DNA from: Myxococcota bacterium
GTDB taxonomy: Bacteria; Myxococcota; B64-G9
Assembly (NCBI GenBank): GCA_035528415.1
Contig: DATKYQ010000044.1
Span: forward strand, 4,473-68,472
Reading direction: 5' to 3'
DNA length: 64,000 nt
The notes beneath the pieces are model-generated. The model made no database searches. It saw only the letters and a list, made by a program, of their open reading frames with translations, and had not been told where the DNA came from. The translations under genes and the position numbers were made by a program. Positions 5,025-59,200 of this stretch are shown one piece after another (the first letter of the stretch is position 1; each line of letters starts with the position of its first letter).

Positions 5025-5033
5025 AGGCGATTC

Positions 5034-6879: not shown

Positions 6880-6881
6880 AC

Positions 6882-18932: not shown

Positions 18933-19691
18933 GTGTCCAGCGATAACGGAATAGAAATACAGGCACGGGATCTTACCAAGACCTTTGCCGCCGGGAAGGG
19001 CAAGCAGCTCTGTGCGGTGAACGGGTTGAGCTTCGAGGCGCAGCGTGGCGAGGTTTTCGGGCTACTGGGAATGAACGGCGCCGGTAAGACCACGACGCTG
19101 CGCATGTTGGCGACAATGTTGACGCCGACGAGGGGCGATGCACAGGTGGCCGGCTACTCGGTAACCCGCAAGCCCGAGGAGGTGCGGCGCCGAATTGGTT
19201 TCATGTCCAGCGCCACGAGTCTTTACGGTCGTCTGACGGCCCGCGAGATGATCGCATACTTCGGCCACCTGCACGGCATGAGTAATGATCGCATTGCCCG
19301 GCGCACGCAGGAGTTGTTCACCCTGCTGGACATGCATGCTTTCGCCGATCGCCGCTGTGACCGTTTGTCGTCGGGAATGAAGCAGAAGGTCTCGATAGTC
19401 AGGACGGTGCTGCACGATCCCGACGTGATGATCTTAGACGAGCCCACCACCGGTCTCGATGTCCTGACTTCCAGGGTGATCGTCGATTTCATCAAGGACT
19501 GCCGCGCCCGTGGCCGCTGCGTCGTGCTGTCCACTCATATAATGTCCGAGGTGGAGAAACTGGCAGATCGGGTGGGAGTGATCCACGCGGGCAAGCTTCT
19601 GAGCTGCGAGACAATTAACGACCTTCGCGCCCGAACACCCGGCGGCCGGGTCGAGGATGCTTTTATCAAACTGGTCGAAGGGCTATCCTGA
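18933..19691 (+). CDS. ABC transporter ATP-binding protein (ABC-2/NatA-like)
   Basis: GTG start preceded by GGGAGAG; Walker A GMNGAGKTTT, signature LSSGMKQKVSIV, Walker B MILDEPTTGLD. Confidence 0.85.
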   Translation: MSSDNGIEIQARDLTKTFAAGKGKQLCAVNGLSFEAQRGEVFGLLGMNGAGKTTTLRMLATMLTPTRGDAQVAGYSVTRKPEEVRRRIGFMSSATSLYGRLTAREMIAYFGHLHGMSNDRIARRTQELFTLLDMHAFADRRCDRLSSGMKQKVSIVRTVLHDPDVMILDEPTTGLDVLTSRVIVDFIKDCRARGRCVVLSTHIMSEVEKLADRVGVIHAGKLLSCETINDLRARTPGGRVEDAFIKLVEGLS

Positions 19692-43221: not shown

Positions 43222-44295
43222 ATGATTGCTGTTATCGATAGGCGGCCGAGATGGAAGCGCCTGATGGCTATAGTTCTCGGCGCTGTGGTCACACTGGCTC
43301 TTGTTTTCGCGGGAGTGCTGATGTTGATCGAATGGAAGCCCGGGCCAGTCGAGGACACGCCGGTATCCGGAGGCGGCGACCGGGCACTGAAGCCGCCTGT
43401 GTCGCTGGATCTATTGTCTTTCAACATAGGCTACGGAGGGCTTGGCCGGCAGGCCGACTTCTTCATGGACGGCGGCGAACAGGTGCGCCCTGAGCGGGAT
43501 GCCGTCGAGGCCAACCTCGCGGCCTTCGGGGATGTCTTGCGCTCTCATCCGGCCGACATCGTCTTGCTCCAGGAGGTCGACCGCGACTCCTCTCGAAGCT
43601 ACGGCATCGACCAGGCCGCGGCCCTGGCCGGCGTGCTGCCGGGCTTTGCCCGCTCGATGGCGCTCAACTTCAAGGTGCCCTGGATTCCCTACCCCGTGTT
43701 GCGCCCGCTGGGCAGGGTTGAAAGCGGCCTGCTCTCTTTGAGTCGCTACCCGTTAGGCTCGGCCAAGCGCTTACAACTTCCCGGCTACTACCCCTGGCCG
43801 GTGCGCGTCTTTCATCTCAAGCGCTGTCTGCACCTGTTACGCTTCCCGGCCCCGGACGGCAAGGACTGGGTGATAATCAACCTGCACCTGTCGGCTTTCG
43901 ACAAGGGCGGCCGCCTGCGGCAGGAGCAGATGGTCTACCTGAAGAAACTGGTTATGGATCTGACAGGCGCCGGGCATCACCTGATCGCCGGGGGCGATTG
44001 GAACCAGGCCTTTCCCGGGATCGACGGCGGCACTTTTGCGCACGGCGATCCCGTTCCAGGCTGGTTCCAGCAGATGGATCCAGCCTGGCTCCCAGCCGGC
44101 TTCCGGTGGGCCTACGACCGCATGCAACCCTCGCTGCGCGCCATCAACAAACCCTACACACCAGGCGAGAACTTCCTGACAATAGTAGACGGCTTCTTAG
44201 TCGGCCCCGGAATAGAAGTGCTCGAAGTACACACGACCAACCTCGGCTTTGCCAACAGCGACCACAACCCGGTGCTGCTGCGGGTGAGGCTCTAA
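43222..44295 (+). CDS. Endonuclease/exonuclease/phosphatase (EEP) family protein, N-terminally membrane-anchored
   Basis: TM MAIVLGAVVTLALVFAGVLMLI; EEP landmarks LLQEVD, NLHLSAFD, GDWN, SDHNPVLL. Confidence 0.7.
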   Translation: MIAVIDRRPRWKRLMAIVLGAVVTLALVFAGVLMLIEWKPGPVEDTPVSGGGDRALKPPVSLDLLSFNIGYGGLGRQADFFMDGGEQVRPERDAVEANLAAFGDVLRSHPADIVLLQEVDRDSSRSYGIDQAAALAGVLPGFARSMALNFKVPWIPYPVLRPLGRVESGLLSLSRYPLGSAKRLQLPGYYPWPVRVFHLKRCLHLLRFPAPDGKDWVIINLHLSAFDKGGRLRQEQMVYLKKLVMDLTGAGHHLIAGGDWNQAFPGIDGGTFAHGDPVPGWFQQMDPAWLPAGFRWAYDRMQPSLRAINKPYTPGENFLTIVDGFLVGPGIEVLEVHTTNLGFANSDHNPVLLRVRL

Positions 44296-45317
44296 TTTCC
44301 CGGCTCGATGATTACTTTTATAGACTCGTCGCCTTGTGCGACCAGGCGGAAGCCTTCCTGGATTTGAGACAGCGGCAGGCGGTGGGTGACCATCTCGGCG
44401 ACGGAAACCGTCCGGCCGGCTATCAGATCCAGGGCTTCCGCGCAGTCGGCGGGCGAGCCGGCGTAGGACGGGACAAGGGTTATCCCGTTTCGCCAGAAGT
44501 CGTTCACCGGAACGGGAAGATCCTGGCCCGGGGGCGGGGTGGCGAAGAAGAGAACGGTTCCTCCCCGGTCGACCGAAAGGATGGCCTGATTGAGGACAGG
44601 GATGGTCCCGGCGCAGACTATTACCACGTCGGCACCGCGGCCCTGGTTGATCTTGCGGATTTCCGCCGGCACGTCGTCGTCCCCGTGCAGAACCGCCGTG
44701 GCACCGAACTTCTCGGCCTGTTTCATGCGGTAGGTGTTGATGTCTGTTGCTATCACCTGCGAAACGCCTAGTGCACGCGCGAGCGCAATGTGCAAGATAC
44801 CCGAGATGCCGCTTCCCAGCACTGCAACCGTCTTGCCGGGCTTGACCCCGGCGATGCGCTGGCCGCGAAGCACGCAGGCCAGCGGCTCAATAAAAGTACC
44901 CTCCTCGAAGCTCATGCTGTCCGGCAGAATAAAAAGGCCGCGATCGACATTGATGGCCGGTACGCGGACGAACTCGGAAAAACCTCCGGGATCGAAGTTG
45001 GTGGTATGCAGTGTCTCGCAGACGGTGTGCTGCCCGCTCAAGCAGTAGCGACAGGTGTTGCAGGGCACATGGTGGCTGACAAATACGCGCTCTCTGACCT
45101 TGTAGCGTGAAACTCCCGGGCCGACTTTCTCTATTGTGCCCGCGATCTCATGGCCCAGCACAAGCGGCGCTTTCTTGATGCGGTACCACTCCATGACATC
45201 GCTTCCGCAGATGCCGCTGGCGGCAACCCGCACCAGGATTTCGCCCGGCCCGATTTCGGGAACGGGCCGTTCCTCGACGCGGCTGTCTGTGTTGTTGTGG
45301 TAGACGGCGACCTTCAT
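44292..45317 (-). CDS. Zn-dependent medium-chain alcohol dehydrogenase (sorbitol/threonine dehydrogenase-like)
   Basis: GICGSDV ... GHEIAGTIEKVG catalytic Zn site; structural Zn Cys cluster CNTCRYCLSGQHTVC; Rossmann VAVLGSGISG. Confidence 0.8.
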   Translation of the reverse strand: MKVAVYHNNTDSRVEERPVPEIGPGEILVRVAASGICGSDVMEWYRIKKAPLVLGHEIAGTIEKVGPGVSRYKVRERVFVSHHVPCNTCRYCLSGQHTVCETLHTTNFDPGGFSEFVRVPAINVDRGLFILPDSMSFEEGTFIEPLACVLRGQRIAGVKPGKTVAVLGSGISGILHIALARALGVSQVIATDINTYRMKQAEKFGATAVLHGDDDVPAEIRKINQGRGADVVIVCAGTIPVLNQAILSVDRGGTVLFFATPPPGQDLPVPVNDFWRNGITLVPSYAGSPADCAEALDLIAGRTVSVAEMVTHRLPLSQIQEGFRLVAQGDESIKVIIEPGN

Positions 45318-45322
45318 GAGCG

Positions 45323-46111
45323 CTACTTTTCAGACGCCTTCAGATCCTGGTACATCTCGTAGGCCTGTCCGGCCGGCAGGTTCTTGTGAACAACGGCGCG
45401 CACCGCCTTGATCATGGCCACCGGGGAATCTGACTGGAAGACGTTGCGGCCCATGTCCACCCCGGCGGCGCCGTCGCCCACGGCGTTGGCGGCCATTTCT
45501 AAAGCATCCTTCTCGGGCATCTTCTTGCCGCCGGCGATCACCACCGGAACCGGAGTGGCGGCAATGATTTTCGAAAAATTCTCGCAGTAGTATGTTTTCA
45601 CCATGTGGCTGCCGATCTCGACGGCCATCCGGCAACACAGCCCCAGATAGCGGGCATCCCGGGCCATCTCGCGGCCCACCGCGGTCACGGTCATGACGGG
45701 GATGCCGTACTTGTTGCCCCAGTCGGCGAGCTTGCCCAGGTTGATAAGCGTCTGGTGCTCGCCCGGTGTGCCGACGAAGATGGACAGGGTGATGCCGCAG
45801 ACATTGAGCCTGATTGCATCTTCAATGTCGCAGGTGAGGCCTTCGTTGGAAAGTTCTGTGAGAATGCTGTTGCCCCCCGAGACGCGCAACATGATCGGCA
45901 CGTCGCTGTCGGGGTCGACACAGATGCGCAGCATTCCCCTTGTGATCATCAGGGTGTCGGCGTACGGCAGTAAGGGGTCGATCGTGCTCTTGAGATCCCT
46001 AAGGCCGGTGGTGGGTCCCTGAAAGTAGCCGTGGTCCACGGCCAGCATGACGATCCGTCCGGTATCGGGTTTGATCATCCGCGCCATTCTGTTCTTCATT
46101 CCCCATTCCAT
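45323..46111 (-). CDS. Class I DhnA/LsrF-type aldolase (fructose-bisphosphate aldolase family)
   Basis: 262 aa; blocks IVMLAVDHGY, ITRGM, MLRVSGG, HMVKTYY resemble archaeal-type class I FBP aldolase / LsrF. Confidence 0.7.
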   Translation of the reverse strand: MEWGMKNRMARMIKPDTGRIVMLAVDHGYFQGPTTGLRDLKSTIDPLLPYADTLMITRGMLRICVDPDSDVPIMLRVSGGNSILTELSNEGLTCDIEDAIRLNVCGITLSIFVGTPGEHQTLINLGKLADWGNKYGIPVMTVTAVGREMARDARYLGLCCRMAVEIGSHMVKTYYCENFSKIIAATPVPVVIAGGKKMPEKDALEMAANAVGDGAAGVDMGRNVFQSDSPVAMIKAVRAVVHKNLPAGQAYEMYQDLKASEK

Positions 46112-46206
46112 GTTCTTCCTCCTTCATGGTTCGAGAGTGCAATCTTATGCAACGCAGTATGGAAGTCAAGCTGCTCAGCGAACGACGATCCGCCTCTCGT
46201 TGACAC

Positions 46207-46218
46207 CCCGATATCGGG
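46207..46218. promoter_or_regulatory. 12-bp perfect palindrome CCCGATATCGGG in the 190-bp gap upstream of the aldolase/ADH genes
   Basis: Perfect inverted repeat inside the only sizeable intergenic gap of the BMC region; candidate operator; function not demonstrable from sequence. Confidence 0.2.
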
Positions 46219-46302
46219 ACTTAGATTGTTCTACAGGAAAGACGGGAGGTCGCCATGGCTGGCATAAAAAACCATTCTGGCCTGCCCGAATTGCATCGCC
46301 CG

Positions 46303-47748
46303 TCAGTTCCCCTTCTGGCCGGCAGACTGGCCGGTGGCGATGGCCACCGAGGCCGAGGCGCCGATACGCGTGGCGCCGGCCGCCACCATGGCCTCGGCCG
46401 TCTGACGATCCTTGATGCCTCCCGAGGCCTTGACGCCCATCTCGGGCCCGACCGTCTCGCGCATCAGGGCAATGTCCTCGACTGTGGCCCCGCCCCCGCC
46501 GAAGCCGGTCGAGGTCTTTACGAAATTCGCCCCGGCCATCTTGGCCAGCAGGCAGGCCTTGACGATCTCCTCCTTGGCGAGCAGGGCGGTCTCGAGGATC
46601 ACCTTGACCAGCGCCTGGCCGCGGGAGGCGTTGACGACTCCCTCGATGTCCCGGCGCACCAGTTCGTCGTCACCCGATTTCAGGGCCCCGACGTTGATGA
46701 CCATGTCGATCTCTCTGGCCCCGTTGGCGATGGCGTCGCGTGTCTCCATGGCCTTGGACGTCGGTGTCGTCGCGCCCAGCGGAAAGCCGATCACTGTGCA
46801 AACCTTGACGTCGCTGCCGGCCAGCAACCGGGCGCACAAGGCCACCCGACCGGGATTGACGCACACCGAGGCGAAGTGGAACTGCCTGGCCTCGGCGCAC
46901 AATTTATGAAACTGATCTTCGGTGGCGTCCGGCTTGAGCAGGGTGTGATCGATCATGCGGCTGATGTCGCCTGAGACAGGCTGCGCCCCAATCGAGGATC
47001 CAACACGCGCGGCGCCGCCTTCTACCAGCTTGCTGACCGCCTCTGGGTTGTTCTCGATGCACAGCCCGCAAGAGCTGCACTCGCCGATGGTCGCCAGCGT
47101 GCAAGCCGGGTTGGGCTTTTGCTCGCCCGTAACGGGATCGACGATTGTTCCCGGGCCGGTCATTTTATCGACGTCGCACAGGCACACGCCCAGCGCCGCA
47201 AGCTGTTTCTCGATGTCGGCGATCTTTTGCCTGACGGCGGCCGGCGCCGCGGCCGGCTCGATCTCGGCGGCAAACAGCGAGTCACGCGCGGCCACCACCG
47301 TGATTCCGCGCATCAGTCCATAGATTGCCAAGATGCAAACCAGGCTGTCGGGCAGCATGGTCAGCAGCTTCGAAGCTGCGTTGAGCGACATGTTCGGCAG
47401 GTAGATTACACCGACGCCGTCGAGCAACTTCCAGACGTCGCCCTCGGTGAGAACCTCGGCTTCGGGGGCGGCCCGGCGTACGGCCGGCACGCCGACAATC
47501 TTCTGCGCCGAGGAAGAGAGAACCACCTTGCAGTCCTCGCAGCAGTCGCAGATCTTGCCTACTTGCGAAAGCGCCTCTGTGAGCCTGCGGTTGCCGCCGG
47601 TGAGCAGGACCAGCACGCGTTTGCCCTTGGGCGTCGCGGGCGGTATCCAGCCGCTGTCCATTCTCTTCTCGCCTTCCGTGGACGGGGACGGCCCCAGCCG
47701 TTTGATCACTTCCGCGGATATCCTGCGAACCAGATCGTCGGAATCCAT
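46303..47748 (-). CDS. deoC: Fusion protein: N-terminal Cys-rich domain of unknown function with putative encapsulation peptide + C-terminal deoxyribose-phosphate aldolase
   Basis: C-terminal half has DERA landmarks ([28 protein letters not shown] with Schiff-base Lys, VKASGGI); N-terminal 250 aa start with the amphipathic [15 protein letters not shown] and contain CDCCEDC and CSSCGLC. Confidence 0.8.
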
Positions 47749-47889
47749 AGGTGTCCTCCACTACGGGCGGACCCGGGGCGTTCCCGGGCCCGGGCTCCGC
47801 ATGGGACGAAGTTATCCCAGGCTCGGCCGTAACCCTCACACTGCGAGGGCCGCTGAGAAACGCGGAAACCACGGCACGAGCGGCGCCGA
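47749..47889. promoter_or_regulatory. GC-rich palindromic intergenic segment between the BMC-H stop and the deoC-fusion start
   Basis: Nested GC palindromes (cccggg, cgggcccg) able to form a stable RNA stem-loop on the minus-strand transcript; no trailing U-tract, so not a canonical intrinsic terminator. Confidence 0.25.
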
Positions 47890-48177
47890 TTACTTGCCGG
47901 CGGTCTTGGGCAGGATGCCTTCCACGTCGCCGTGCGGACGCGGGATGACATGCACCGACACCAACTCGCCGACCTTCTTGGCCGCCACCGCGCCGGCTTC
48001 CACCGCGGCCTTGACCGCGCCGACGTCGCCGCGCACCATGACGGTCACGAACCCGCCGCCGATGAACTCCTTGCCTACCAGGGACACCTTAGCTGCCTTG
48101 ACCATTGCGTCGGCCGCCTCGATTGCGCCCACCAAGCCTTTGGTCTCGATCATTCCCAGCGCTTCTTTCGACTCCAC
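47890..48177 (-). CDS. BMC shell hexamer protein (BMC-H, PduA/EutM/CcmK family)
   Basis: 95 aa; GTG start; canonical Pfam00936 sequence [26 protein letters not shown] ... VHVIPRPH. Confidence 0.95.
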
Positions 48178-48199
48178 GTCAAACCTCCGTCTGTTGAAC

Positions 48200-48502
48200 T
48201 TAGGGATTCCAGATCTTCACACGGCCGCCGGGTTCTTCCTCGACGGCCAACTCATCCACGTATCCAACTATGGTCGCATCCACCGGGGGCTTGTCGCCTA
48301 AAGCGATGGCCGCGTCCCTCTTCATGACCAGGTAAACCACATCGCCGGGCCCGGCGCAACGAATCCCGTCGACTGCGACGAACGCTTCGCCCGAGGGCCG
48401 CAGGTTTTGGTCGAGCCCCTGAACGACCAGAAGCCTGAGACCCTCGAGTTCGGGGTCCTTGATCGTCGCCACTACGCGCCCGATGACTTTTCCCAAGCGC
48501 AT
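48200..48502 (-). CDS. BMC vertex pentamer protein (BMC-P, EutN/PduN/CcmL family), copy 1
   Basis: 100 aa from ATG 48502: [28 protein letters not shown] ... [10 protein letters not shown]; the track ORF start at 48712 overlaps rpiB and is rejected. Confidence 0.9.
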
Positions 48503-48509
48503 ACCTTGC

Positions 48510-48977
48510 CTACCCTTCCCGAACGCGATTCTCGACCGCGGTGATCTTGTCGAGCCTTTGCTGGTGCCGTCCACCGGCATAGTCGGTCTCAAGCCAGAGC
48601 TTGGCCAGATCCTTGGCCAGGCCCGGGCCGAGAACTTGTCCGCCCAGGCAGAGCACGTTGGCGTCGTTGTGCACCCGGCTGCTCTTGACACCGAAGGCAT
48701 CGTATCCGGCAATCGCCCTGATACCCGGCAGCTTGTTGGCCACGATGGCGCTGGCCTGCCCTATGCCGTCAATCATGATGCCCCGGCAATCCGCGGAAAC
48801 CCGCGAAGCTCCGGCCACGGCCTGCGCCACCAAAAAGGCGAAATCGGGATAATCGCAAGCATCCTTCCCGTGACAGCCGAAGTCGCGCACCTCGTGCCCA
48901 AGTTCCACCAGAAATGTCTTCAGCGACTCTTTCAGTTGGTAGCCACCGTGGTCGCTGCCGATAAAAATCTTCATCAC
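48510..48977 (-). CDS. rpiB: Ribose-5-phosphate isomerase B (RpiB/LacAB family)
   Basis: MMKIFIGSDHGGYQLKESL ... GIMIDGIGQASAIVANK ... NDANVLCLGG landmarks; 155 aa. Confidence 0.9.
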   Translation of the reverse strand: MMKIFIGSDHGGYQLKESLKTFLVELGHEVRDFGCHGKDACDYPDFAFLVAQAVAGASRVSADCRGIMIDGIGQASAIVANKLPGIRAIAGYDAFGVKSSRVHNDANVLCLGGQVLGPGLAKDLAKLWLETDYAGGRHQQRLDKITAVENRVREG

Positions 48978-49843
48978 GCCTTCTCCCGGGCCGTAATGGC
49001 GATGATTTCACTCAACGCTTCGGGATTCAAGCCCGCTCCTCCCACCAGGAAACCGTCGCAGTCCGGCATTCGCGCAAGATCCCCGGCGCTGCCGACACCG
49101 ACGCTGCCCCCGTAGAGCAGGCGCGACCGTTCGGCCCAGGCATGTGAAAACAACTCGCCCAACCTGTCGCGGATGAAAACCAGGGCCTCCTGGACCTGGG
49201 AGGGCGAGGCGACCAGTCCGCTGCCGATGGCCCAGATCGGCTCGTAGGCCACTACGATCTCCTGCGGATCGGGTGCCGGCTGCCCCAGCCCGGAAAGCGC
49301 CAGCGTGAGCTGGGCGCGCAGCACGCGGAAGGTCGCGCCCCGCTCGCGCTCTTCAAGCCGCTCGCCGACGCACAGAACAGGAGTCAGGCCTGCGGACAGC
49401 GCGGCGAGCAGCTTGCGGCGCACCAGTTCGTCGTCCTCGCCGGCCGCCCGGCGCTCGGAATGTCCCACGATCACGTAGCTCGCGCCGGCATCCTTTATCA
49501 TCTCGGCGCTGTGCTCCCCTGTATGCGCGCCGGAGTGTTCCGGGTGCAGATCCTGGGCGCCCAGGCTGACATGCGTGCCGTTGGAGAGCGCGCCGCGCAA
49601 CACCGGCAGCAGCACCAGCGGCGGGCACAACAGCGTGTCCACTCCGCTGTCCGCGTGAGGATTCAGTTTGGCCGCGTAGCGCCGCGCGTCCTCGGCCAGC
49701 AAGTTCATTTTCCAGTTGGCGGCGATCAGCGGCCGGCGACCGCCGCTGGCGGATAACCGATGTATATCTGCATCGCCCGCGGCCATGGTCTCGTAGACCA
49801 CCTGGCGCACCACCCGTTCCACTCTGTCCCGCAGGTCGCTCAC
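48974..49843 (-). CDS. tpiA: Triosephosphate isomerase with N-terminal extension of about 30 aa (candidate encapsulation peptide)
   Basis: IAANWKMN, VIVGHSERR, AYEPIWAIGSG, GGSV TIM landmarks; GTG at 49843 (GGGGAGGG RBS 9 nt upstream; overlaps the upstream BMC-P stop as GTGA) gives MSDLRDRVERVVRQVVYETMAAGDADIHRLSASGGRRPL before the IAANWKMN core; alternative start is the internal ATG around 49786. Confidence 0.8.
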   Translation of the reverse strand: MSDLRDRVERVVRQVVYETMAAGDADIHRLSASGGRRPLIAANWKMNLLAEDARRYAAKLNPHADSGVDTLLCPPLVLLPVLRGALSNGTHVSLGAQDLHPEHSGAHTGEHSAEMIKDAGASYVIVGHSERRAAGEDDELVRRKLLAALSAGLTPVLCVGERLEERERGATFRVLRAQLTLALSGLGQPAPDPQEIVVAYEPIWAIGSGLVASPSQVQEALVFIRDRLGELFSHAWAERSRLLYGGSVGVGSAGDLARMPDCDGFLVGGAGLNPEALSEIIAITAREKA

Positions 49844-50157
49844 TTGTGTGCACCCTCCCCGGCCGGCGCCTCGAGCGCCAGGCGTTCGCCGCGCACCCGG
49901 ACCTGATCGATCACCCCAACGATGATCGCTTCGCAAGGCGCGCTATCGCTGCCGAGCACCTGCCGGGCGCTCTTGCCTTCCTCGACCACCAGGACGTAGT
50001 CACCAACGCCCGCCTGGGCGGCGTCGATGGCGATAAAAGCAGGATCGGTCTGCCGCCCCTTGCTGTCGATCGGGCCGACGAACATCAGCTTACAGCCGAC
50101 ATGATCCGGATGCTTGACTGTCGCAACCAGCGACCCGATGACCCTCGCGATTTTCAA
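49840..50157 (-). CDS. BMC vertex pentamer protein (BMC-P), copy 2
   Basis: 105 aa: MKIARVIGSLVATVKHPDHVGCKLMFVG ... AIIVGVIDQV. Confidence 0.9.
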   Translation of the reverse strand: MKIARVIGSLVATVKHPDHVGCKLMFVGPIDSKGRQTDPAFIAIDAAQAGVGDYVLVVEEGKSARQVLGSDSAPCEAIIVGVIDQVRVRGERLALEAPAGEGAHK

Positions 50158-50186
50158 GTCAATCTCCTTATCCGTCCATCAGGCGA

Positions 50187-50750
50187 TCACAACAACTTCG
50201 CAACCAGGTCGGGATGCGGGGCCGGGATCACGGTCGTAGCCAACAGCAAGCCGTGATCGCGGGCCGCACGCTGTCCGGCCTCGACGGCCGCCCTGACGGC
50301 GGATACCTCGCCGGTCAGCAGCACATAGCCCTTGCCTCCCAGTGCCCGGGCCAGACGGATCTCGAGCAAGTCGACCCGGGCGCTCTTGACCGCCTGGTCG
50401 CCGGCGATGATCGCCGCAGCCAGCGAAAAAGTCTCGATCACTCCCAGGGCGGCGATGCCGGCCGGCACGGTCGTAGCGCTGAAGGCATCGAGTACCTGCG
50501 GATGAACGTTGGGAATGACGATCTCGTCCACTAAGCTGTCTCTGGCCTCGGTCTTCCCGGCCGCGACCGCGGCCTGCGTATCGGCCACCGCTCCACCGAT
50601 GATTGTCAGGTACTTGCCCGGGCAGACCGGGCTGGAAAACAGCAGACGCACCCGGGCGGCCTTGAGCATGGCATCAGCCGCCCGGATTCCCGTGACCACG
50701 CTGCTGGTCTCGACACAACCAATCGCCTGCTCATTTTTTTTCTCGACCAC
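50187..50750 (-). CDS. BMC tandem-domain shell protein (BMC-T, PduT-like)
   Basis: 187 aa with two BMC domains (AIGCVETSSVVTGIRAADAMLKAARV and ALGVIETFSLAAAIIAGDQAVKSARV). Confidence 0.85.
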   Translation of the reverse strand: MVEKKNEQAIGCVETSSVVTGIRAADAMLKAARVRLLFSSPVCPGKYLTIIGGAVADTQAAVAAGKTEARDSLVDEIVIPNVHPQVLDAFSATTVPAGIAALGVIETFSLAAAIIAGDQAVKSARVDLLEIRLARALGGKGYVLLTGEVSAVRAAVEAGQRAARDHGLLLATTVIPAPHPDLVAKLL

Positions 50751-50753
50751 GGT

Positions 50754-52106
50754 TTACTCCACGTCGATGGTGACGGCCGTCGGACTGACTTCGGCCACCC
50801 GTCCGGCAAGGCCGGTGTGTACGCATGCGCCCAGAGCGTCCCCGGGGACCTCTCCCAACAGCTCTCCGGCCGCTACATTCTGGCCGGCTTCTACCACGGC
50901 CTGTGCCGGCTGGCCGGCATGTTGCTTCAACGGTATGGTCAGGCGCGTCAGCTCGATTTCAAATGCAGCCCGGGGCGCCGGGCGATCGTAGGCGTCTAGG
51001 CCCAGGCGGGCAATCAGGCGTTTGGAAGGCACCCTGCGTAACGGACTGAATTCGCGTTCCGCCGATGTCACCGCCGGCTGCGGGCGAGGCATCCCGGCTT
51101 CCGTAAGTCGCCCTACAAACTCTTTGTTCATGGCGCACGGGTCGAGATTCATCACACAACCATAGGCCGTACATAACCCGCAGCCTGAGCAGAGAAAGGC
51201 CCCCGTGTAAGCCTGCAGATCCTCGCTCACGCTCGCGGCCAGGTTACGCATCAGTCGGTCGGGATAGAGCCGGTGGCCAAGCAAGTTGCGCGGGCAAATT
51301 TCGGTGCACAGCATGCACTTCAGACAAGCCGAGCGCGCCAGGTGAATTTGGCGCTCGACTGTCCGCCGTCGACGTGTGACCTGCGGGTGATCCGCGGGAA
51401 GCACGAGCATAAGGCTTGTGGTCTTGGTTACTACTGAGGAACTCTCGTCCACGATCGAACCCATCATCGGCCCGCCGGAAATGACTACTGCCGATTCGCA
51501 GGCTGCTCCCCCGGCCGCTTCCAGCAGAGCCGACAAGGGAGTTCCAAGCGGCACGCGGAAGGTGGCCGGGCTCCCGACCGCGCCCGCCAGGCTGACGTAG
51601 CGGTGCGTGACAGGCTGCCGGCCGTCGACGGCCGCGGCCACATCGATCAGGGTAGAGACATTCGACACCACGGCGCCCACCGCGAGCGGCAGGCCGAACT
51701 CGGGAATTACACGATCGAGCACCTCGCGTACCAGCACAAACTCGTCCCCGGCCGGGTAAAAGTCATCCAGCAGGCGCAACTCAATCTTCTCGCCAATATT
51801 GCCGAGTTTGATTGCCTCGCCGAGCGCATCGATCGCTGGGGCGTATTTTTTCTTGAGCGCCACGATCCCGCGCCGGGCACCGGTGATCTCCATGGCGATC
51901 TGCAGCCCGCGCAGCACCTCGCGGGGCTTCGAGGCCATGCGCTGCTGGTCGACCCGCGCCAGCGGCTCACACTCGGCCCCGTTACCGATGACTACCTCCA
52001 CCTGCGCTGCATACTTGACATGGGTGGGGAAACCCCCGCCTCCGGCGCCGACCACGCCGGCCGTGCGAATTCTTTCGAGCCACTCTTTTACAGAACCATG
52101 GACCAA
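50754..52106 (-). CDS. PduS-like RnfC/NuoF-family Fe-S flavoprotein (BMC-associated oxidoreductase)
   Basis: GAGGGGFPTHVK nucleotide-binding N-terminus; SLBB-like region; two 4Fe-4S motifs CLKCMLCTEICP and CSGCGLCTAYGC; 450 aa. Confidence 0.8.
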   Translation of the reverse strand: MVHGSVKEWLERIRTAGVVGAGGGGFPTHVKYAAQVEVVIGNGAECEPLARVDQQRMASKPREVLRGLQIAMEITGARRGIVALKKKYAPAIDALGEAIKLGNIGEKIELRLLDDFYPAGDEFVLVREVLDRVIPEFGLPLAVGAVVSNVSTLIDVAAAVDGRQPVTHRYVSLAGAVGSPATFRVPLGTPLSALLEAAGGAACESAVVISGGPMMGSIVDESSSVVTKTTSLMLVLPADHPQVTRRRRTVERQIHLARSACLKCMLCTEICPRNLLGHRLYPDRLMRNLAASVSEDLQAYTGAFLCSGCGLCTAYGCVMNLDPCAMNKEFVGRLTEAGMPRPQPAVTSAEREFSPLRRVPSKRLIARLGLDAYDRPAPRAAFEIELTRLTIPLKQHAGQPAQAVVEAGQNVAAGELLGEVPGDALGACVHTGLAGRVAEVSPTAVTIDVE

Positions 52107-52117
52107 GCCAGCTCCTC

Positions 52118-53587
52118 TCAGACGATCCTGAAGGCCCCGGCCAGCACGCAGCGGCGCTGCCTGGTGAACGTGCGCGCCGAGGTCAGGCCCTCGCCGGTGG
52201 GGCCGGCGATGCTCAGCGTGGTAAAACCCTCGCCGCCGAATCCCAGCCCGGCGTAGGAGGGAGCGTTCTTGACGAAGATGGTGGTCTCGATCTCGCGGGC
52301 CACCAGGCTCATGTTGCTGACGCTCTCCGAGTGCATCATTGCCGAGTGCCGGTTGCCATGCTCGGCCTGCTTGGCCTTGGCAAGCGCAGTGGTGAGATCG
52401 GGCACTGCAACGATCGGCAGGATAGGCATCAGCATCTCGGCCTGCACCAGGGGATGCTCGAAGGGCACCCGGCAGATCACCAGGCGCGTATCGGGACCGG
52501 CCGTGAGGCCGATCTGATCCAGCAAGACCGAGGCGTCTTTGCCGACGAACTTCTTGTTGGGGTGCGGGTGAGGCCGGCCGGGCTCGACCAGCACCGAGGT
52601 GATCTTATCGACATCGTCGCCCGAGATCAGACGCGCTCCATAGGTAATCATCTCATCGATCAACCTGTCGGCGACGTTTTCTAAAACCAGCACCTCTTTC
52701 TCGGCCGTGCACAGGACGTTGTTGTCGAACGATGCCCCGTCGACGATACAGCGGGCGGCCTTGCGGATATCGGCGGTGTCGTCGACGATAACCGGCGGGT
52801 TTCCCGGTCCGGCCGCGACCGCCTTCTTGCCGCAGGTCATGGCCAGCCTGACCACCTCGCCCCCACCGGTGACCATCAATAACCGGATGCCGGGATGCAT
52901 CATGATCGCCTGCGATGTCTCCAGGCTGGGCTGGGCGATAGAACACAGCAGCGTCTCGGGACCGCCGGCAGCATGGATGGCCTTGTTCAGAAGACTCACG
53001 GCCTCGTTGCTCACCCCCTTGGCCAGCGGGTGAGGATTGAAGACCACCGCGTTGCCGGCCGCCACCATCGAGATGCCGTTGTTGATCACGGTGGCCACCG
53101 GGTTTGTGCAAGGGGTAACGGCGGCGACGACACCGTAGGGCGCCGGCTCAACAAGCGTCAAGCCGTCGTCGCCCGTGTAACACATCGGCGTCAGGTCTTC
53201 CACTCCCGGTGTCTTGCGGGCCGCCAGCAGGTTCTTCTGCACCTTGTGCTCGGCGCGCCCGAAACCCGTCTCGGCCACAGTCTTGCGCGCCAGGTCCTCG
53301 GCCATCTCGATGCCCGCCTGCCGCATAGCCTTGATGAACACCCGGCGGCGTTCGAGAGACACGCCCGAGAATGCCTGGTAGGCGGCCCCGGCGGCGGCGA
53401 TGGCCTCTTCCATCGTCTCGAAGACGCCATTCGCAGTTGACCCGCCATTTTGCGCGCCGGCCCGCGGCTCGCAAATAAGTGACCGCGGACGTGGTTCTGC
53501 AACAGGCTGCGAATCGCCGTTCGTCACTCGCCTGACGATCTCGGTCACCAGCCGCTCGATCTCTTTTTCGTTCACCGGAATGGTCAT
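52118..53587 (-). CDS. CoA-acylating aldehyde dehydrogenase (PduP/EutE family) with N-terminal encapsulation peptide
   Basis: N-terminal amphipathic EKEIERLVTEIVRRV; ALDH superfamily body with catalytic Cys region NNVLCTAEKE; 489 aa. Confidence 0.9.
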   Translation of the reverse strand: MTIPVNEKEIERLVTEIVRRVTNGDSQPVAEPRPRSLICEPRAGAQNGGSTANGVFETMEEAIAAAGAAYQAFSGVSLERRRVFIKAMRQAGIEMAEDLARKTVAETGFGRAEHKVQKNLLAARKTPGVEDLTPMCYTGDDGLTLVEPAPYGVVAAVTPCTNPVATVINNGISMVAAGNAVVFNPHPLAKGVSNEAVSLLNKAIHAAGGPETLLCSIAQPSLETSQAIMMHPGIRLLMVTGGGEVVRLAMTCGKKAVAAGPGNPPVIVDDTADIRKAARCIVDGASFDNNVLCTAEKEVLVLENVADRLIDEMITYGARLISGDDVDKITSVLVEPGRPHPHPNKKFVGKDASVLLDQIGLTAGPDTRLVICRVPFEHPLVQAEMLMPILPIVAVPDLTTALAKAKQAEHGNRHSAMMHSESVSNMSLVAREIETTIFVKNAPSYAGLGFGGEGFTTLSIAGPTGEGLTSARTFTRQRRCVLAGAFRIV

Positions 53588-53600
53588 GAACTCAACCTCG

Positions 53601-53891
53601 TTACTTGGCGAAAGTCTGCCGCCCGCCGATGTCGATAAAATCTACTATGGCCACAATGGTCGCGTCGACCGGCGAATCATGGGTGGTGTCGGTCAGCCTC
53701 GACGATGAGCCCTGAACCACCAGCACTATCTCGTCCTCGCCGGCCCCGACTGAATCCACGGCTACCAGTTGTTTGCCGCTGGCTTCCTGTTTCTCGAAAT
53801 CGACCGGATCGACGACCAGCAGCTTGGTTCCGGAAAGCTTCTCGGATTTCCGTGTGCTGACTACGTTTCCTACAACTCGCGCAAGAAACAT
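53601..53891 (-). CDS. BMC vertex pentamer protein (BMC-P), copy 3
   Basis: 96 aa: MFLARVVGNVVSTRKSEKLSGTKLLVVD ... ATIVAIVDFI. Confidence 0.9.
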   Translation of the reverse strand: MFLARVVGNVVSTRKSEKLSGTKLLVVDPVDFEKQEASGKQLVAVDSVGAGEDEIVLVVQGSSSRLTDTTHDSPVDATIVAIVDFIDIGGRQTFAK

Positions 53892-53935
53892 GTTTCGTGC
53901 TCCTTTCGGTCAATATGTCGACCCGCAGTCGTTCA

Positions 53936-54703
53936 TCACACATCCAGCTTGACGATCTCAATGCCGAGATCGCGCGCCCGGCTTTCCGCCATAGGCGTCA
54001 CGATGGTGCCCGCGGGCAGCGTAAGTTGGCGTTCACCCGCCCGCGCCAGTTGTTCTACGTCGTCCTCCGTCACAAGCCCGTCGAAAGAGCGGGCCCGCGT
54101 GGTACCGGACGTCCCGATGTGTTCGATCAGCCCCGCTATATCGGCCGCGGCTACAGGCTGCAACCCCAGCGTGTCCAGGTCACGCAAAATGCTTGCGGCC
54201 TCGGCCCCCGTCTGACCCCGTGCGCCCAACCCGGACGGTCGCAGATCGTCCGTGACCAGGGCCACGCGCCGCCCGGCCAGAAGAGCCTGACTGACCAGCC
54301 TGACGAAGGGCTGCCCATCGCGCCTGTCAATCAGCGCCCGGGCGTGCTCGAAGCCGATACTGCCCACCAGCACCAGGTCATCGCGGCCGATCTCGCCAAG
54401 CGCATAGCTTAAGTCCGCCTCCGAAAAAGCGGAGATATCGCCGCCCAACTTCCCGCGCAAGCCCCCGCTATCGATGTCGCCGAGCAGGGCTGACTCACAG
54501 AGTACCCTCACGCGCGCGCCGCCTGCGACCAGGGGTGCCAGTTGGTCTGCCAGGATCCCGAGGTTTGCCGAGGCCACTGGCAACACCACGAGGATTCGCG
54601 GTGCGTGGCCCGCTGGGGGCAAACTCGCGGGGGACCCCAAGCGCGCCAGAACACGTCCGGTGATTTCCTCAATCAGGCGCTCGATTTCCTTGTCGTCTGC
54701 CAT
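53936..54703 (-). CDS. BMC-associated protein of unknown function with N-terminal encapsulation peptide
   Basis: N-terminus MADDKEIERLIEEITGRVLARL nearly repeats the aldehyde dehydrogenase EP (KEIERL); 255 aa; C-terminal TEDDVEQLARAGERQLTLPAGTIVTPMAESRARDLGIEIV block; no confident family assignment. Confidence 0.6.
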   Translation of the reverse strand: MADDKEIERLIEEITGRVLARLGSPASLPPAGHAPRILVVLPVASANLGILADQLAPLVAGGARVRVLCESALLGDIDSGGLRGKLGGDISAFSEADLSYALGEIGRDDLVLVGSIGFEHARALIDRRDGQPFVRLVSQALLAGRRVALVTDDLRPSGLGARGQTGAEAASILRDLDTLGLQPVAAADIAGLIEHIGTSGTTRARSFDGLVTEDDVEQLARAGERQLTLPAGTIVTPMAESRARDLGIEIVKLDV

Positions 54704-54720
54704 GCGTACAATTGTCCCGT

Positions 54721-55413
54721 TTACCGAATCGTCACACCGCCGGCCGTGTAATCACAGAAGGGACGCGTGTTGCCACCCTCGGTGCTCTGGGAGGCAAGGC
54801 ATCCCTCGCGGCCGCACAGGTCAAGGCACAGGCTTGGGACAACCTCGACCCGGCTGCCTGCTACGACTCCCGCCGCGTTGCCCTCATCGGTGTCCAGGTG
54901 CAACTCGGTCAGAAATTTGTCGCTCACCCGCACGACGATTTCATCGAAGATCAGCGAGCGCGGCCCCGGAAAGTGAACATACACCTTCTGGCCGTTTGTT
55001 ACTCCGAGCCTGCGGGCGTCCTGCGGTGTCGCGTGGATGTGGCGCACGGCGCAGATGCAGCCCGAGTTCAGCCGAACCGCCCCGCGGGGTCCAATCAGAT
55101 CGGCGCCCGGTGTGCCCGCCAGGTCGCCGGACAGGCGCACGGGCACGTTTATACCCAAGGCAACCCCGTCGCTTACCGACAACTCCACCTGGCTCGCGCC
55201 GCGGGGAGGGCCGAGAATTCGCACCCCGGGAATCGAGCGCCGCGGTCCGACGACCTCCAGCGTCTCGCGCGCGGCATACTGGCCCGGCTGGGACAAGGCG
55301 GACACAGGGGTCAGGCGGTAGCCGTGCCCGAAAAGCTCTTCCACATGCCGATCAGACAGGTGAACGTGCCGGGCCGAGAGGGCGACCGGGATGGTGCGAT
55401 CTCCGTTTTCCAT
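54721..55413 (-). CDS. pduL: Phosphotransacylase PduL (phosphate propanoyl/acetyltransferase)
   Basis: Two PduL-type repeats with metal-binding His motifs: SARHVHLSDRHVEELFG and ICAVRHIHATPQDARRLGV; 230 aa. Confidence 0.85.
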   Translation of the reverse strand: MENGDRTIPVALSARHVHLSDRHVEELFGHGYRLTPVSALSQPGQYAARETLEVVGPRRSIPGVRILGPPRGASQVELSVSDGVALGINVPVRLSGDLAGTPGADLIGPRGAVRLNSGCICAVRHIHATPQDARRLGVTNGQKVYVHFPGPRSLIFDEIVVRVSDKFLTELHLDTDEGNAAGVVAGSRVEVVPSLCLDLCGREGCLASQSTEGGNTRPFCDYTAGGVTIR

Positions 55414-56033: not shown

Positions 56034-56251
56034 GTCTTCCTCCTCCGAGGTTTTTGTACCCCGTCCATACGGGACACCAAGAACTTCATCCCGTATAACC
56101 GGGCAATCTATATCCACGACAAGTCGCCACAGTATCCCTCCCCGGAACGAATTTCAAGTATGTTCTTTCCGTCATCGAGAAACTGCGGACTTGAACGAAA
56201 CCGCCTTTCCCCCTAGTGTTATATGGAACAGAAAAAAGGGGAGACGATCTC

Positions 56252-59200
56252 ATGATCACAGAGAAACCAGGCAGGCTATCTTTGTCCCGCGCTTTCTTGC
56301 TGCCGGCGCTTGCCGGCCTGTTGTTGTCGGCCTGCGGCTCGGACAAGGCAGGCTCGAAGTGCGGCGACTGCTCCACGCTCGACGGGCCCTGCAGCCAGGG
56401 AGCCTGCAACGAAGACACCCGCGAGTGCTTCGCCGATGCGATTAACGAGGGCACCGACTGCAGTGACGGCGACAAGTGTACACTCGACGACAGCTGTCAG
56501 GCCGGGCAGTGTGTGGGCACGCCCATGGAGTGCACCGAGCAGGTGTCCGAGTGCGTGGCCGGTGTGTGTGACAAGGGCGAGTGCACATACCCAGCTCGGC
56601 CGGACGGCACGGCCTGCATCAGCAAGACAGATGAGTGCAACGACGGCCAGTGCCTGGCCGGCGAGTGCAGCGCCGTTGTGAAAGCCGACCAGACACCCTG
56701 CAACGACGGCGACTGGTGTACCACCCCCGACAGTTGCGCAGCCGGCGTCTGCGATGGTACGGCACGCAACTGCTCGGACGGTCTCGACTGCACCAGCGAC
56801 TCGTGCGACCCGGATCGTAACGCCTGCGGCTACCAGGTGGCCGCAGACAACTGCCTGATCGCCGGCAACTGTTTCGCGGACGGTGACCCCAACCCGGACA
56901 ATTCCTGCCAGGAATGCGCTGCCGCCATGAACCAACAGGACTGGTTCAACGATGACAGCAACGCCTGCGATGACGGCAACCTGTGCACGGATCCGGATGG
57001 GTGCACGGACGGGGTATGCTCGGGAACGCCCGTTTCCGGCTGCTGCCTTGCCGACGGCGATTGCGGCGACGGCAAGGACTGCACTACTGATGTCTGCAAC
57101 ACGGCGGACGGCACCTGCACGAACGGCGTCGATGCCGGATATTGTCTGATCGGCGACCTGTGCGTTACCGACGGCACCCTCAACCCGGCCAATGCCTGCC
57201 AGTCCTGTATCGCTGTGACAAACCAGACCGGCTGGGCGGACAACAATGATCCCTGCGACGACGGATTGTACTGCACAACGGACGACCATTGCGGCGGCGG
57301 ATCGTGCCAGGGCACCAGCGGCACGATCTGCGATGACGGCGTAGACTGTACCGACGATGTCTGCAACGAATCGGCCCAGAGTTGTTCTCATGCGCCCTCT
57401 GCCGGCCAGTGCCTGATCGGCGGCACCTGCTTCGCGGCGGGAGCACTCAACCCGAACAACGACTGCCAAGAGTGTATTCCGGCAGGCAGCCAGACAGACT
57501 GGAGCGCCGACGACAGCAACACCTGCGACGACGGAAACAACTGCACCGACTCCGACCACTGCAGCGCAGGCACCTGCACCGGAACGCCCATTCCCAACTG
57601 TTGCACCAGCGACGCGGAATGTAACGACAACCTGGATTGCACCAGCGACAGCTGCACGCTGGCCACAGGCGCCTGCACAAACTCCGTCAATGCCGGCCAG
57701 TGCCTGATCGCGGGCGCCTGCTACGCCAACGGAATTCCCAACCCCAACAACAACTGCCAGGCCTGCGCGGCAGGCACTGTCCAGGACACCTGGTCGCCGG
57801 CCAACGAAGGCGCCGAGTGCGGCGGGATCTGCCAGGCATGCCAGGGTGGAACATGCGCAAACATGCCCGACACGGGCGACGCCGATCCCTTCGGCGAATG
57901 CCCGCCCTGCCGCGTGTGCGACGGGTCCGGCGGCTGTCGTAACGCCCAAAACGGCACCGACCCCAAGAACGACTGCCAGGCGGCCGAGTGCGTCTTCGAC
58001 GTTTGCCAGGCAGGCTCCTGCAACATGACATCGGGCACGCAGTGTACCGACAGCGACCAAGGCGACTGCAACGACGCCCAGTGCAATAGCCTGGGCACTT
58101 GCCTGCAGGACTTCGCCTACGAGGCATCCGGCTACGCCTGCGATGACGCAGACGCCTGTACCACTCCAGATCAGTGCGACACGTTGGGACAGTGCGCGGG
58201 CGCTGCACTGGCGCCCGATCCCGATCCCGATTCGGTTGTTTCGGCAACCAGCGCCTGCCTGACCTACTCCACGAACTCCCGCACGGTAGTCAGCGTCGCC
58301 CTGAACGACACGGGCGGAACCCCGATCGGCGCCGCCACGGTGACCATCGAGGCCGACGACGCAGGCATCAGCTGGAGCGGCCCGGTCGTAGAATCGGCCG
58401 TTGCGCCGGGAGTCTACTTCCGCGTCATGCAAACCCCGGCGGCGCAGATTCCGGGCGACGACACCGTGGTATCGGTAAGCGCGCATTCGGGGTCTGGCGC
58501 CTGTCAGTCTTCCGAGGAAGCAATGAACACGACCGCAACTATCGTCTTCGCCGCGCAGACCGCGGCGGGAGCCGCGGCCGGCACCGGCGGCTGCCCGATC
58601 GACAACAATCTCAGGGTGCGCGTCATTGACGCCCGCGATTCGAGCCCCATAGCCGGCGCCTACGTCATGGTGGGCCTCGCCCCTGGCGACGTTTTCGAAG
58701 ACGACTTCGAGCAAGTCCTTTCGGGCGCGGCCAGCCTGACAAACGCCGGGCGGGCCGATACCGGCGGGATGATTGAGTTCGAGGACCAGGGCACGGCCCT
58801 GGATGGGCCGCAGATTGTAACAGCCGGTTTCGACAACATGAGTTACACGAGCATGGTCGACGTCGACGCGGCCGACATCGTCATCTCGCTGACCCCTATT
58901 AGCGCCATCCCGGCCATGGCGAAGATCGCGGGCTCGGTGACCGGGTTGCCGATCGTAAGCTACGACGACATCGTCAATGCGGCCATGGTTATCAACCAGT
59001 TCAATATGGACAGCCTGGTCAAGTTCAGGTTCGACGATCTGCTGGCCCAGGAGGAAGACTGCTGGCTGGCGGCCTCCATCTTTCTGCTGGGCGACCAGTG
59101 GGCGTCCATGCCGGCCAACATCGACGTTCCCCAGCAAACCGAGAGATATATCTTTCCCGTGACTATCAACCCGCACTTCTACCAAACCGTCCCGCTCGAG

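Follow-up and report, generated by a model that had tools for sequence, protein, structure and literature searches.

A 64-kb stretch of a ~71-kb contig from a Myxococcota metagenome-assembled genome (MAG), hereafter the window (G+C ~62%), carries on its minus strand, between positions 46303 and 55413, a run of genes for the shell proteins and enzymes of a bacterial microcompartment (BMC). The gene map was built from open reading frames (ORFs) with high third-position GC, and protein families were assigned with Pfam and NCBIfam (Table 1). Each gene that the initial annotation, made from the sequence alone, had listed for this array was found in its place and matched the expected family model. 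The Myxococcota-like character noted there agrees with the source MAG, which is named 'Myxococcota bacterium'. The intergenic distances from PduL to the hexameric shell protein are at most 29 nt, with a single exception of 44 nt, and some genes overlap by 4 nt. Transcription probably starts upstream of a lipoprotein gene at 56033, which had not been listed before. These results suggest that 46303-55413 is probably one operon for a sugar phosphate utilization (SPU) metabolosome, of a subtype found in uncultured Myxococcota, with an enzyme set that, in the suggested catalogue comparison, matches that of the catalogued subtype SPU4. Metabolosomes of the SPU class rank among the most widespread, and recycling of sugar from DNA is their presumed function.

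Related loci used for comparison were L003 and L004, the two close ones, from uncultured Myxococcales MAGs, together with L005-L008 and L093. The gene order is common to six other loci: lipoprotein, PduL, a 255-aa protein, BMC-P, aldehyde dehydrogenase, PduS-like protein, BMC-T, [second BMC-H], BMC-P, triosephosphate isomerase (TPI), RpiB, BMC-P, BMC-H, a flavoprotein-aldolase fusion, and [class II aldolase], where the bracketed genes are present in some loci only. The identity of the 255-aa protein (termed DUF) in these loci is 41-83%. It drops as low as 41-46%, against 89-92% retained by BMC-H. All 14 ORFs that remain in the window are full length, and their dN/dS values, calculated per gene against L003 and L004, are 0.04-0.36, indicating purifying selection. 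Outside the coding regions, an Rfam search gave no match in the window, the 141-nt spacer between BMC-H and the aldolase fusion included. The conservation of this spacer is confined to close relatives, and a promoter and terminator scan of the region yielded matches at an overall chance level.

Table 1. Genes and other features of the SPU locus and its surroundings, in window coordinates
Feature	Position	Strand	Basis
Lipoprotein, 191 aa	55458-56033	-	Signal peptide, LMALGC lipobox, Ala/Glu-rich linker, helical domain with conserved Cys
PduL-type phosphotransacylase	54721-55413	-	PF06130, 238 bits; NF011652, 246 bits
Flavoprotein-fold protein, 255 aa, with predicted encapsulation peptide; divergent eut_hyp/TIGR02536 + PF02441-like	53936-54703	-	Weak TIGR02536 match, residues 209-252
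BMC-P paralogue 1 (pentamer, vertex)	53601-53891	-	PF03319, 106 bits
CoA-acylating aldehyde dehydrogenase	52118-53587	-	NF011927, 652 bits; PF00171
PduS-like NADH dehydrogenase (MNdh)	50754-52106	-	PF01512, PF10531, PF13534 (Fer4), PF13375, in that order
BMC-T(s), PduT-like (T^SE)	50187-50750	-	Two PF00936 domains, 156 bits; TIGR02526, 124 bits
Junction lacking the second BMC-H (H2), 29 nt; H2 cleanly absent	50158-50186	-	Junction alignment
BMC-P paralogue 2	49840-50157	-	PF03319, 90 bits
Triosephosphate isomerase, 289 aa	48974-49843	-	PF00121, 258 bits
RpiB-family protein of SPU type, no encapsulation peptide	48510-48977	-	TIGR01120, 148 bits (cut-off 139)
BMC-P paralogue 3	48200-48502	-	PF03319, 79 bits
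BMC-H (hexamer), sole copy in window	47890-48177	-	PF00936, 100 bits
DERA (DeoC) fusion, 481 aa, signature enzyme	46303-47748	-	TIGR00126, 280 bits, residues 262-470
Deletion scar, 191 nt	46112-46302	-	Alignment with L004
Sigma-70-like promoter match, TTGACT-16-TAAGAT	46142-46169	-	Upstream of LsrF-like gene; block conserved with L004
LsrF-type CoA-dependent thiolase, 262 aa	45323-46111	-	NF006081, 399 bits (cut-off 297)
Zn-dependent medium-chain dehydrogenase, threonine/polyol dehydrogenase-like	44292-45317	-	PF08240 + PF00107
Membrane-anchored endonuclease/exonuclease/phosphatase-family protein, transmembrane helix	43147-44295	+	PF03372, 42 bits
Acetate kinase AckA	39936-41159	+	PF00871, 483 bits; TIGR00016, 476 bits

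For the shell, a tblastn search across the whole window identified exactly one BMC-H, one tandem-domain BMC-T, and three BMC-P genes. As the earlier note had proposed to check, the shell ORFs (one single-domain and one tandem PF00936 protein and three PF03319 proteins) all scored above the gathering thresholds, and they are clustered with the enzymes. The only BMC-H indeed lies near the 3' end of the operon. Its interface motifs, KAAK and PRPH, are standard, and it is 89-96% identical to its counterparts in L003, L004, L005, L008, and L093. The three BMC-P proteins share pairwise identities of 34-39%. Their genes are never adjacent, with TPI and RpiB between the second and the third and with the first 3.4 kb off, and this order is clade-wide.

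SPU loci are defined by pfam01791 together with pfam02502, an aldehyde dehydrogenase (AldDH), and a triplet of BMC-P proteins, as described by Sutter et al. (2021, Nat Commun). The window encodes a deoxyribose-phosphate aldolase (DERA), an RpiB-family ribose-5-phosphate isomerase (RPI) homologue with Asp at position 66, an AldDH bearing a predicted encapsulation peptide (EP), and a BMC-P triplet, and neither RuBisCO nor carbonic anhydrase was found among the Pfam assignments of the locus and its flanks. These observations agree with the earlier assignment of the locus to the SPU class and to the metabolosomes rather than the carboxysomes.

An N-terminal tag consisting of an amphipathic helix and a linker was identified on four proteins: AldDH, TPI, the 255-aa flavoprotein-fold protein, and the DERA fusion. 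The helix was taken from an AlphaFold 2 (AF2) model for the 255-aa protein, and from the sequence and the hydrophobic moment for the other three. In AldDH, the helix is KEIERLVTEIVRRV, with a hydrophobic moment of 0.89. In TPI, the EP-like helix is SDLRDRVERVVRQV, and the start that yields the 289-aa protein is backed by the gene call of the source contig and by full-length alignment to L003 and L004. The catalytic motifs of DERA, AldDH, and TPI are intact, the last including the K/H/E triad (NWKMN, GHSERR, and YEPIWAIG).

For PduL, the reaction assigned by family is the conversion of acetyl-CoA and phosphate to acetyl phosphate (acetyl-P) and CoA. The protein ends in a tail of ~45 aa (54721-54858) with four Cys residues, C196-x3-C200-x4-C205...C220, which is conserved in all five loci compared. 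Judging from its sequence, this tail could bind a metal or an Fe-S cluster, or it could serve in targeting in an unusual way.

For the PduS-like protein, the assigned parts are an FMN/NADH domain, an SLBB domain, two Cys clusters (C261xxCxxCxxxCP and C306xxCxxC), and a C-terminal RnfC barrel. The C-terminal RnfC_N domain was considered as a possible oddity and rejected, because it belongs to the usual arrangement of such proteins as described by Sutter et al. (2024, PMC11275729). According to the same work, PduS is a metabolosome NADH dehydrogenase (MNdh) that exports electrons via the Fe-S cluster of a partner BMC-T. The BMC-T gene of the window starts 3 nt past the MNdh stop and encodes the pore motif C43-P-G-K. 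From the domain order, this spacing, the CPGK pore, and the two Fe-S motifs, the two proteins are predicted to form an MNdh/BMC-T^SE module.

For the RpiB-family protein, alignment to solved RpiB structures placed Asp and Ile at the positions of E. coli Cys66 and Thr68 (IMIDGIGQAS vs ILICGTGVGIS). The change from Cys66 to Asp is kept in L003, L004, L005, and L008, and is not found in the RpiB of L011, a locus outside the BMC group. This change was considered as a possible novelty and rejected, since Dwyer et al. (2024, PMC11585597) describe Asp in place of E. coli Cys66 in all SPU RPIs. In the experiments described there on a Chloroflexi SPU6 system, the RPI with Asp66 had negligible isomerase activity on ribose 5-phosphate (R5P) and bound DERA at ~1:1, and the SPU6 DERA cleaved 2-deoxyribose 5-phosphate (dR5P) in vitro. 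These results indicate that the role of a pentose-phosphate isomerase, which had first been given to the RpiB-like protein, should not be assumed.

For the DERA fusion, the layout is an EP helix, a flavoprotein-like domain (residues ~45-200), a linker with four Cys (Cys4), and the DERA domain. The catalytic D/K/K residues are intact (EIDMV, VKTSTGF, and VKASGG). As in SPU DERAs, the enzyme has an N-terminal extension, here of 260 aa and opening with an amphipathic helix. More than 110 full-length homologues were found, one of which carries a precomputed PF02441 + PF01791 annotation, and the EP is conserved across 116 homologues. Of 117 aligned sequences, 71-74% retain the Cys4 linker, C216-x7-C224-x2-C227-x2-C230 (47059-47103), and one subclade shows a clean deletion of it; the motif is not described in those parts of the published SPU and MNdh work with which it was compared.

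The 255-aa protein has no Pfam match. Its AF2 model (mean pLDDT 74) consists of a helix at residues 4-21, a disordered stretch at 19-34, a Rossmann-like alpha/beta domain at 37-198, and a small beta-alpha-beta unit at the C-terminus. The best folds were the UbiX/CoaC flavoproteins, matched weakly (E 3.5e-5, TM-score 0.43/0.56, 13-17% identity). A word-index search gave only 4 matches, whereas an exhaustive HMMER profile search revealed a family of 226 cluster representatives, mostly of ~250 aa. Among 60 aligned members, 40 match TIGR02536 (eut_hyp) and 11 match the CoaBC flavoprotein domain. An hhalign comparison showed that the N-terminal 200 residues of the DERA fusion share ancestry with this family (probability 99%, E 4e-18). 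These results indicate that the operon has two paralogous domains of flavoprotein fold with an EP tag, of which one is a free protein and the other a part of the DERA fusion.

Acetate kinase is present nearby, as had been noted, ending 3.1 kb from the Zn-dependent dehydrogenase gene. It is not a member of the operon: the gene calls of the source contig show a 4-nt overlap between its start and the stop of an OPT transporter gene, which means that it is translationally coupled to that gene on the opposite strand and belongs to a separate operon. AckA is likely to be the cytosolic partner of PduL.

In the pathway proposed for the compartment, the steps follow published SPU and MNdh work, and the shell set, the tags, and the catalytic residues are read from the sequence. 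dR5P would enter the shell and be split by DERA into acetaldehyde and glyceraldehyde 3-phosphate. AldDH would trap the acetaldehyde as acetyl-CoA with formation of NADH, PduL would restore CoA and release acetyl-P, and the cytosolic AckA could make ATP from acetyl-P. MNdh would re-oxidize the NADH, with the electrons leaving via the Fe-S cluster in the BMC-T pore. TPI would convert the triose phosphate to dihydroxyacetone phosphate (DHAP) and so draw the reversible cleavage by DERA toward its products. Lacking an EP of its own, the RpiB-like protein with Asp66 would most likely enter bound to DERA, and not act as an R5P isomerase. The core chemistry outlined in the initial annotation, from DERA through AldDH and PduL to AckA, is thus that of the published SPU scheme.

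Several points weigh against this assignment. The functional call rests on homology and on the Chloroflexi SPU6 DERA and RPI experiments, and the SPU4 match on the enzyme set. Enzymes that make dR5P, such as a nucleoside phosphorylase or a phosphopentomutase, were not found within the window. PduL is without an N-terminal EP, unlike the EPs that Dwyer et al. (PMC11585597) describe as predicted for all SPU phosphotransacylases (PTACs), and the two flavoprotein-fold domains are without an assigned role or a demonstrated cofactor. Furthermore, the non-adjacency of the BMC-P genes departs from the catalogue rule, given by Sutter et al. (2021), that in SPU loci the grey- and orange-clade BMC-P genes are always neighbors, although this rule describes the loci and does not concern function.

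Compared with its relatives, the operon is a trimmed version. The second BMC-H (H2) sits between BMC-T and the second BMC-P in L003 (14566-14823) and L005 (5555-5863); its interface residues are KAAA/KTAA, and it ends in a Gly/Arg tail. Neither the window nor L004, L008, or L093 has this gene. At the junction, the window retains the ribosome-binding region that preceded H2, and L004 the one that preceded the second BMC-P, which suggests independent deletions of H2. A class II aldolase ends the operon in L004, L005, and L008, is absent in L093, and is reduced to six codons in the window. The gap that had been noted at this end of the operon is present, and it proved to be a deletion scar: positions 46279-46296, ATGCAATTCGGGCAGGCC (MQFGQA), correspond to codons 1-6 of the class II aldolase (MQFGKA at the start in L004), after which the window sequence resumes immediately upstream of the LsrF-like gene. 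Relative to L004, ~1.9 kb is missing, comprising a PF00596 (Aldolase_II) gene, whose product has an EP-like tail at its C-terminus, a NifU_N gene, and a Mo-oxidoreductase gene on the opposite strand. In L004, the NifU_N/IscU-like scaffold gene (19170-19571) overlaps the stop of the class II aldolase, and its product could act as a scaffold for the organelle, which has many Fe-S or Cys sites.

The clade thus forms a natural 'knock-out series': two loci have H2 and four lack it, while the class II aldolase occurs in three loci, is missing from one, and survives in the window as its six codons. With every other gene under purifying selection, this series suggests a minimal shell of one BMC-H, one BMC-T, and three BMC-P, and the pattern of gene loss suggests that DERA, not the class II aldolase, is the indispensable source of aldehyde.

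This pattern bears on whether the physiological substrate of the SPU-like shell is dR5P. Another sugar phosphate could be used in either of two ways: the ancestral class II aldolase could cleave a ketose 1-phosphate to an aldehyde and DHAP, which would pass to TPI, or a different substrate could be processed by the RpiB-like protein with Asp66 and by the pair of flavoprotein domains. Points in its favor are the EP-like tail of the class II aldolase where that enzyme ends the operon, an RPI that is without a known substrate, and flavoprotein domains and Cys4 motifs whose roles are unassigned; moreover, Dwyer et al. (PMC11585597) state that subtype-specific pathways are still to be tested. Against it, the aldolase is dispensed with in the window and L093 and DERA is kept everywhere, with a canonical active site, and the SPU DERA cleaves dR5P in vitro. 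We therefore regard a substrate other than dR5P as unlikely.

The two genes downstream of the scar had been assigned to the organelle locus as a DhnA-type aldolase and a Zn-dependent alcohol dehydrogenase (Zn-ADH). The first, of the PF01791 family, is instead an LsrF-type thiolase: besides its NF006081 score, it gave 315 bits to E. coli LsrF structures vs 59 bits to class I fructose-bisphosphate aldolases, with the Schiff-base Lys conserved (VKTYY). The Zn-ADH scored below the cut-off of every NCBIfam equivalog. A search with an LsrF alignment found 83 loci in unrelated metagenomes (L009-L091). A Zn-ADH lies beside LsrF in 54 of them, many of the remaining loci being short contigs, and the ADHs of the 54 paired loci are mostly 46-68% identical. 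A BMC shell gene, DERA, or AldDH was beside LsrF in none of the 83. The homologues include sequences named by their sources as Abyssobacteria, Nitrospirae, Thaumarchaeota, and Odinarchaeia. The ORFs scanned in the window and three inspected cassette neighborhoods contained no lsr partner gene (lsrK, lsrG, or lsrACDB), which points to a role of the cassette unrelated to autoinducer-2 (AI-2). A literature search on the LsrF/Zn-ADH cassette returned nothing specific.

A functional part for this pair in the organelle pathway, the thiolase handling triose phosphate and the dehydrogenase recycling NADH, is improbable. The pair lies on the same strand as the operon, 191 nt downstream, and is also near the operon in L004. 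LsrF chemistry yields DHAP and acetyl-CoA, which are substrates of TPI and PduL. A shell-less row of the corresponding genes also occurs in the Nitrospirae locus L011. However, neither protein has an EP or an N-terminal extension, and the pair stands alone in the 54 loci and adjoins TPI, PduL, or RpiB in 1 of the 83. It is not downstream of the operon in L005, L008, and L093, and in L004 it is separated from the operon by the NifU-like and Mo-oxidoreductase genes; its contiguity with the operon in the window is a product of the deletion. The cassette also retains its own conserved promoter-like block, in which the sigma-70-like match is a consensus match only (2 in the region vs 1.8 expected by chance). 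In addition, the alcohol dehydrogenases reported in SPU loci by Dwyer et al. (PMC11585597) are of pfam00465 and not Zn-dependent medium-chain dehydrogenases/reductases (Zn-MDR). We conclude that the LsrF/Zn-ADH pair is a separate cassette that was moved next to DERA by the deletion, and is not organelle cargo. Accordingly, of the earlier proposals for NADH recycling and for triose-phosphate handling, the MNdh/BMC-T module most likely accounts for the former and the EP-tagged TPI with its intact triad for the latter, and the ADH and the aldolase are unlikely to take part. The locus thereby corrects an easy annotation trap, in which an LsrF/ADH cassette beside a BMC operon is read as part of it.

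In L011 (3563-7307), the genes for a triosephosphate isomerase, a PduL-type PTAC, an LsrF-like protein, a Zn-ADH, and an RpiB with the normal catalytic Cys stand in a row, and no shell gene lies within the 10.8 kb fetched. This row may be a shell-less pathway to DHAP and acetyl-P, a single case among the 83; a general link by which the LsrF/ADH pair travels with TPI, PduL, and RpiB was considered and rejected on this count.

That the operon is a decaying relic, left with no working organelle after the loss of one BMC-H and of the class II aldolase, would fit the two clean gene losses and is very improbable, given the full-length ORFs with their low dN/dS and intact motifs, the single BMC-H also of L004, L008, and L093, the retention of all else in L093 in spite of its lack of the class II aldolase, and the single BMC-H of the catalogued SPU subtypes 3, 5, 6, and 7 listed in Supplementary Data 2 of Sutter et al. 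(2021).

The SPU metabolosome operon is flanked by two conserved genes. The lipoprotein gene precedes PduL in every locus that reaches that far: a protein of ~190 aa without a Pfam match is found in the same place and orientation in L003, L004, L006, L007, L008, and L093. The window protein matched neither Pfam nor NCBIfam. Its AF2 model is a helical bundle (pLDDT 77-92 for residues 70-180), and a Foldseek search with it returned a generic helical bundle with no significant fold match. The protein is presumably exported, and hence not lumenal cargo. At the other end, the gene of the endonuclease/exonuclease/phosphatase (EEP) family is convergent with the operon, as are its copies just downstream of it in L005 (10598-11599, 64% identical) and L093 (13484-14587, 59% identical), so that this neighbor is shared by three divergent lineages; the protein gave a generic family match only, and no solved relative was found by sequence. 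In a further locus, L092, a staphylococcal-type nuclease (SNase) gene follows the aldolase. The lipoprotein, EEP, and nuclease neighbors fit a link to nucleic-acid scavenging and do not prove it. The lipoprotein, the EEP hydrolase, and the Cys4 motifs are flagged here as conserved accessories that have not been studied.

Two readings go beyond the literature and are, taken jointly, rather unlikely. In the first, the lumen may hold extra redox or metal centers, formed by the two flavoprotein-fold domains, one of them joined to DERA through the Cys4 linker, and by the Cys4 tail of PduL; the operon, the exported lipoprotein, and the membrane-anchored EEP hydrolase may also be a unit, in which the hydrolase harvests extracellular nucleic acid. 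In the second, the LsrF/Zn-ADH cassette may be a two-enzyme route in which a 2,4-diketone, made by the dehydrogenase from a phosphorylated (deoxy)pentulose, is cleaved by the thiolase to DHAP and an acyl-CoA. The oxidation of such a pentulose to the LsrF substrate seems chemically plausible, and the route may be widespread, independent of quorum sensing, and feed the same PduL, TPI, and AckA steps.

Other features were observed elsewhere in the window. At 56216-60148 on the plus strand, divergent from the operon, lies a gene for a Cys/Asp/Gly-rich protein of 1310 aa with a lipoprotein-like N-terminus and no Pfam match, which is 83-91% identical in L003 and L004. A 1667-aa protein encoded at 24697-29700 on the minus strand combines Dictyostelium-type CTDC repeats and CARDB with a C-terminal matrixin (M10) protease domain. 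A cluster at 966-8639 and 13792-14847 encodes two Fer4_5 membrane ferredoxin-like proteins, a PQQ beta-propeller, an ankyrin-repeat protein, two DUF362 proteins, and a homologue of the 2-hydroxyglutaryl-CoA dehydratase D-component.

Among known systems, the LsrF-type thiolase is closest to E. coli LsrF, which acts in AI-2 degradation and which it matches over its full length with the Schiff-base Lys and above the NCBIfam equivalog cut-off; it differs in having a Zn-dependent dehydrogenase as its partner, an arrangement common to many bacteria and archaea. With the PduS/PduT module of PDU and other metabolosomes, the window shares the order of the four domains, the two Fe-S motifs, the adjacent tandem BMC protein with a pore Cys, and the co-occurrence of AldDH. 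In contrast to those systems, it has neither a B12-dependent enzyme nor a lumenal alcohol dehydrogenase, and MNdh/BMC-T would be the only NAD+ recycler.

Enzyme data exist for a single SPU system, that of Chloroflexi SPU6 (Dwyer, Sutter & Kerfeld 2024, Commun Biol), which shares with the window the D/K/K residues and the N-terminal extension of DERA as well as Asp66 of RPI. SPU6 differs in having a BMC-T(dp), a C-terminal EP on AldDH, a DERA extension of ~70 aa, and an RPI with an EP, and in lacking PduS/T, PTAC, and TPI as core components.

With SPU4, the window shares AldDH, the pfam01791 DERA, the pfam02502 RPI, the pfam06130 PTAC, the pfam00121 TPI, and an eut_hyp/PF02441-related protein with an N-terminal EP, in addition to the N-terminal EPs on AldDH, DERA, and TPI, the BMC-P triplet, and the absence of a BMC-T(dp). 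In Supplementary Data 2 of Sutter et al. (2021), EPs of SPU4 are also listed on AldDH, DERA, and about half of the TPIs. The window also has the PduS/BMC-T(s) pair, which only some SPU4 loci possess. In contrast, SPU4 is mostly found in Firmicutes and typically has two similar BMC-H proteins, whereas the window, from Myxococcota, has one; the PTAC of the window has no EP and carries a Cys4 tail; and its DERA carries a whole flavoprotein-like domain and not a short extension. The 'unknown EP protein' of the initial annotation is the eut_hyp/PF02441-like protein already noted for SPU4, and the suggestion that the composition of the locus may be new does not hold for the EP-tagged TPI and eut_hyp protein, both described in that catalogue.

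Nor does it hold for the rest of the set. A preprint on Hodarchaeales (bioRxiv 10.1101/2025.11.08.687404; PMC12747264) describes Myxococcota SPU loci with PTAC, 'DUF', flavoprotein-DERA, MNdh, a T(s) with CPGK, TPI, and a class II aldolase, and with two BMC-H and three BMC-P. The Myxococcota SPU loci (B64-G9, HGW-17) and the Hodarchaeales type II 'archaeal microcompartments' share with the window PTAC, 'DUF', AldDH, MNdh, the BMC-T(s) with CPGK, three BMC-P, TPI, RPI, the flavoprotein-DERA fusion, and acetate kinase as an outside partner, and the host of the window is likewise a member of the Myxococcota. The window has no citrate synthase and no K/R-rich tail on the second BMC-P. The two BMC-H and the class II aldolase (PF00596) by which the preprint defines these loci are represented in the window by one BMC-H and six aldolase codons. 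Among its relatives, the aldolase is found in L004 and L005 and H2 in L003 and L005, which identifies the window as a trimmed derivative. It has been proposed that the microcompartments of Asgard archaea derive from the Myxococcota SPU versions. The locus, which adds no new class, has modest extra value as a naturally trimmed variant.

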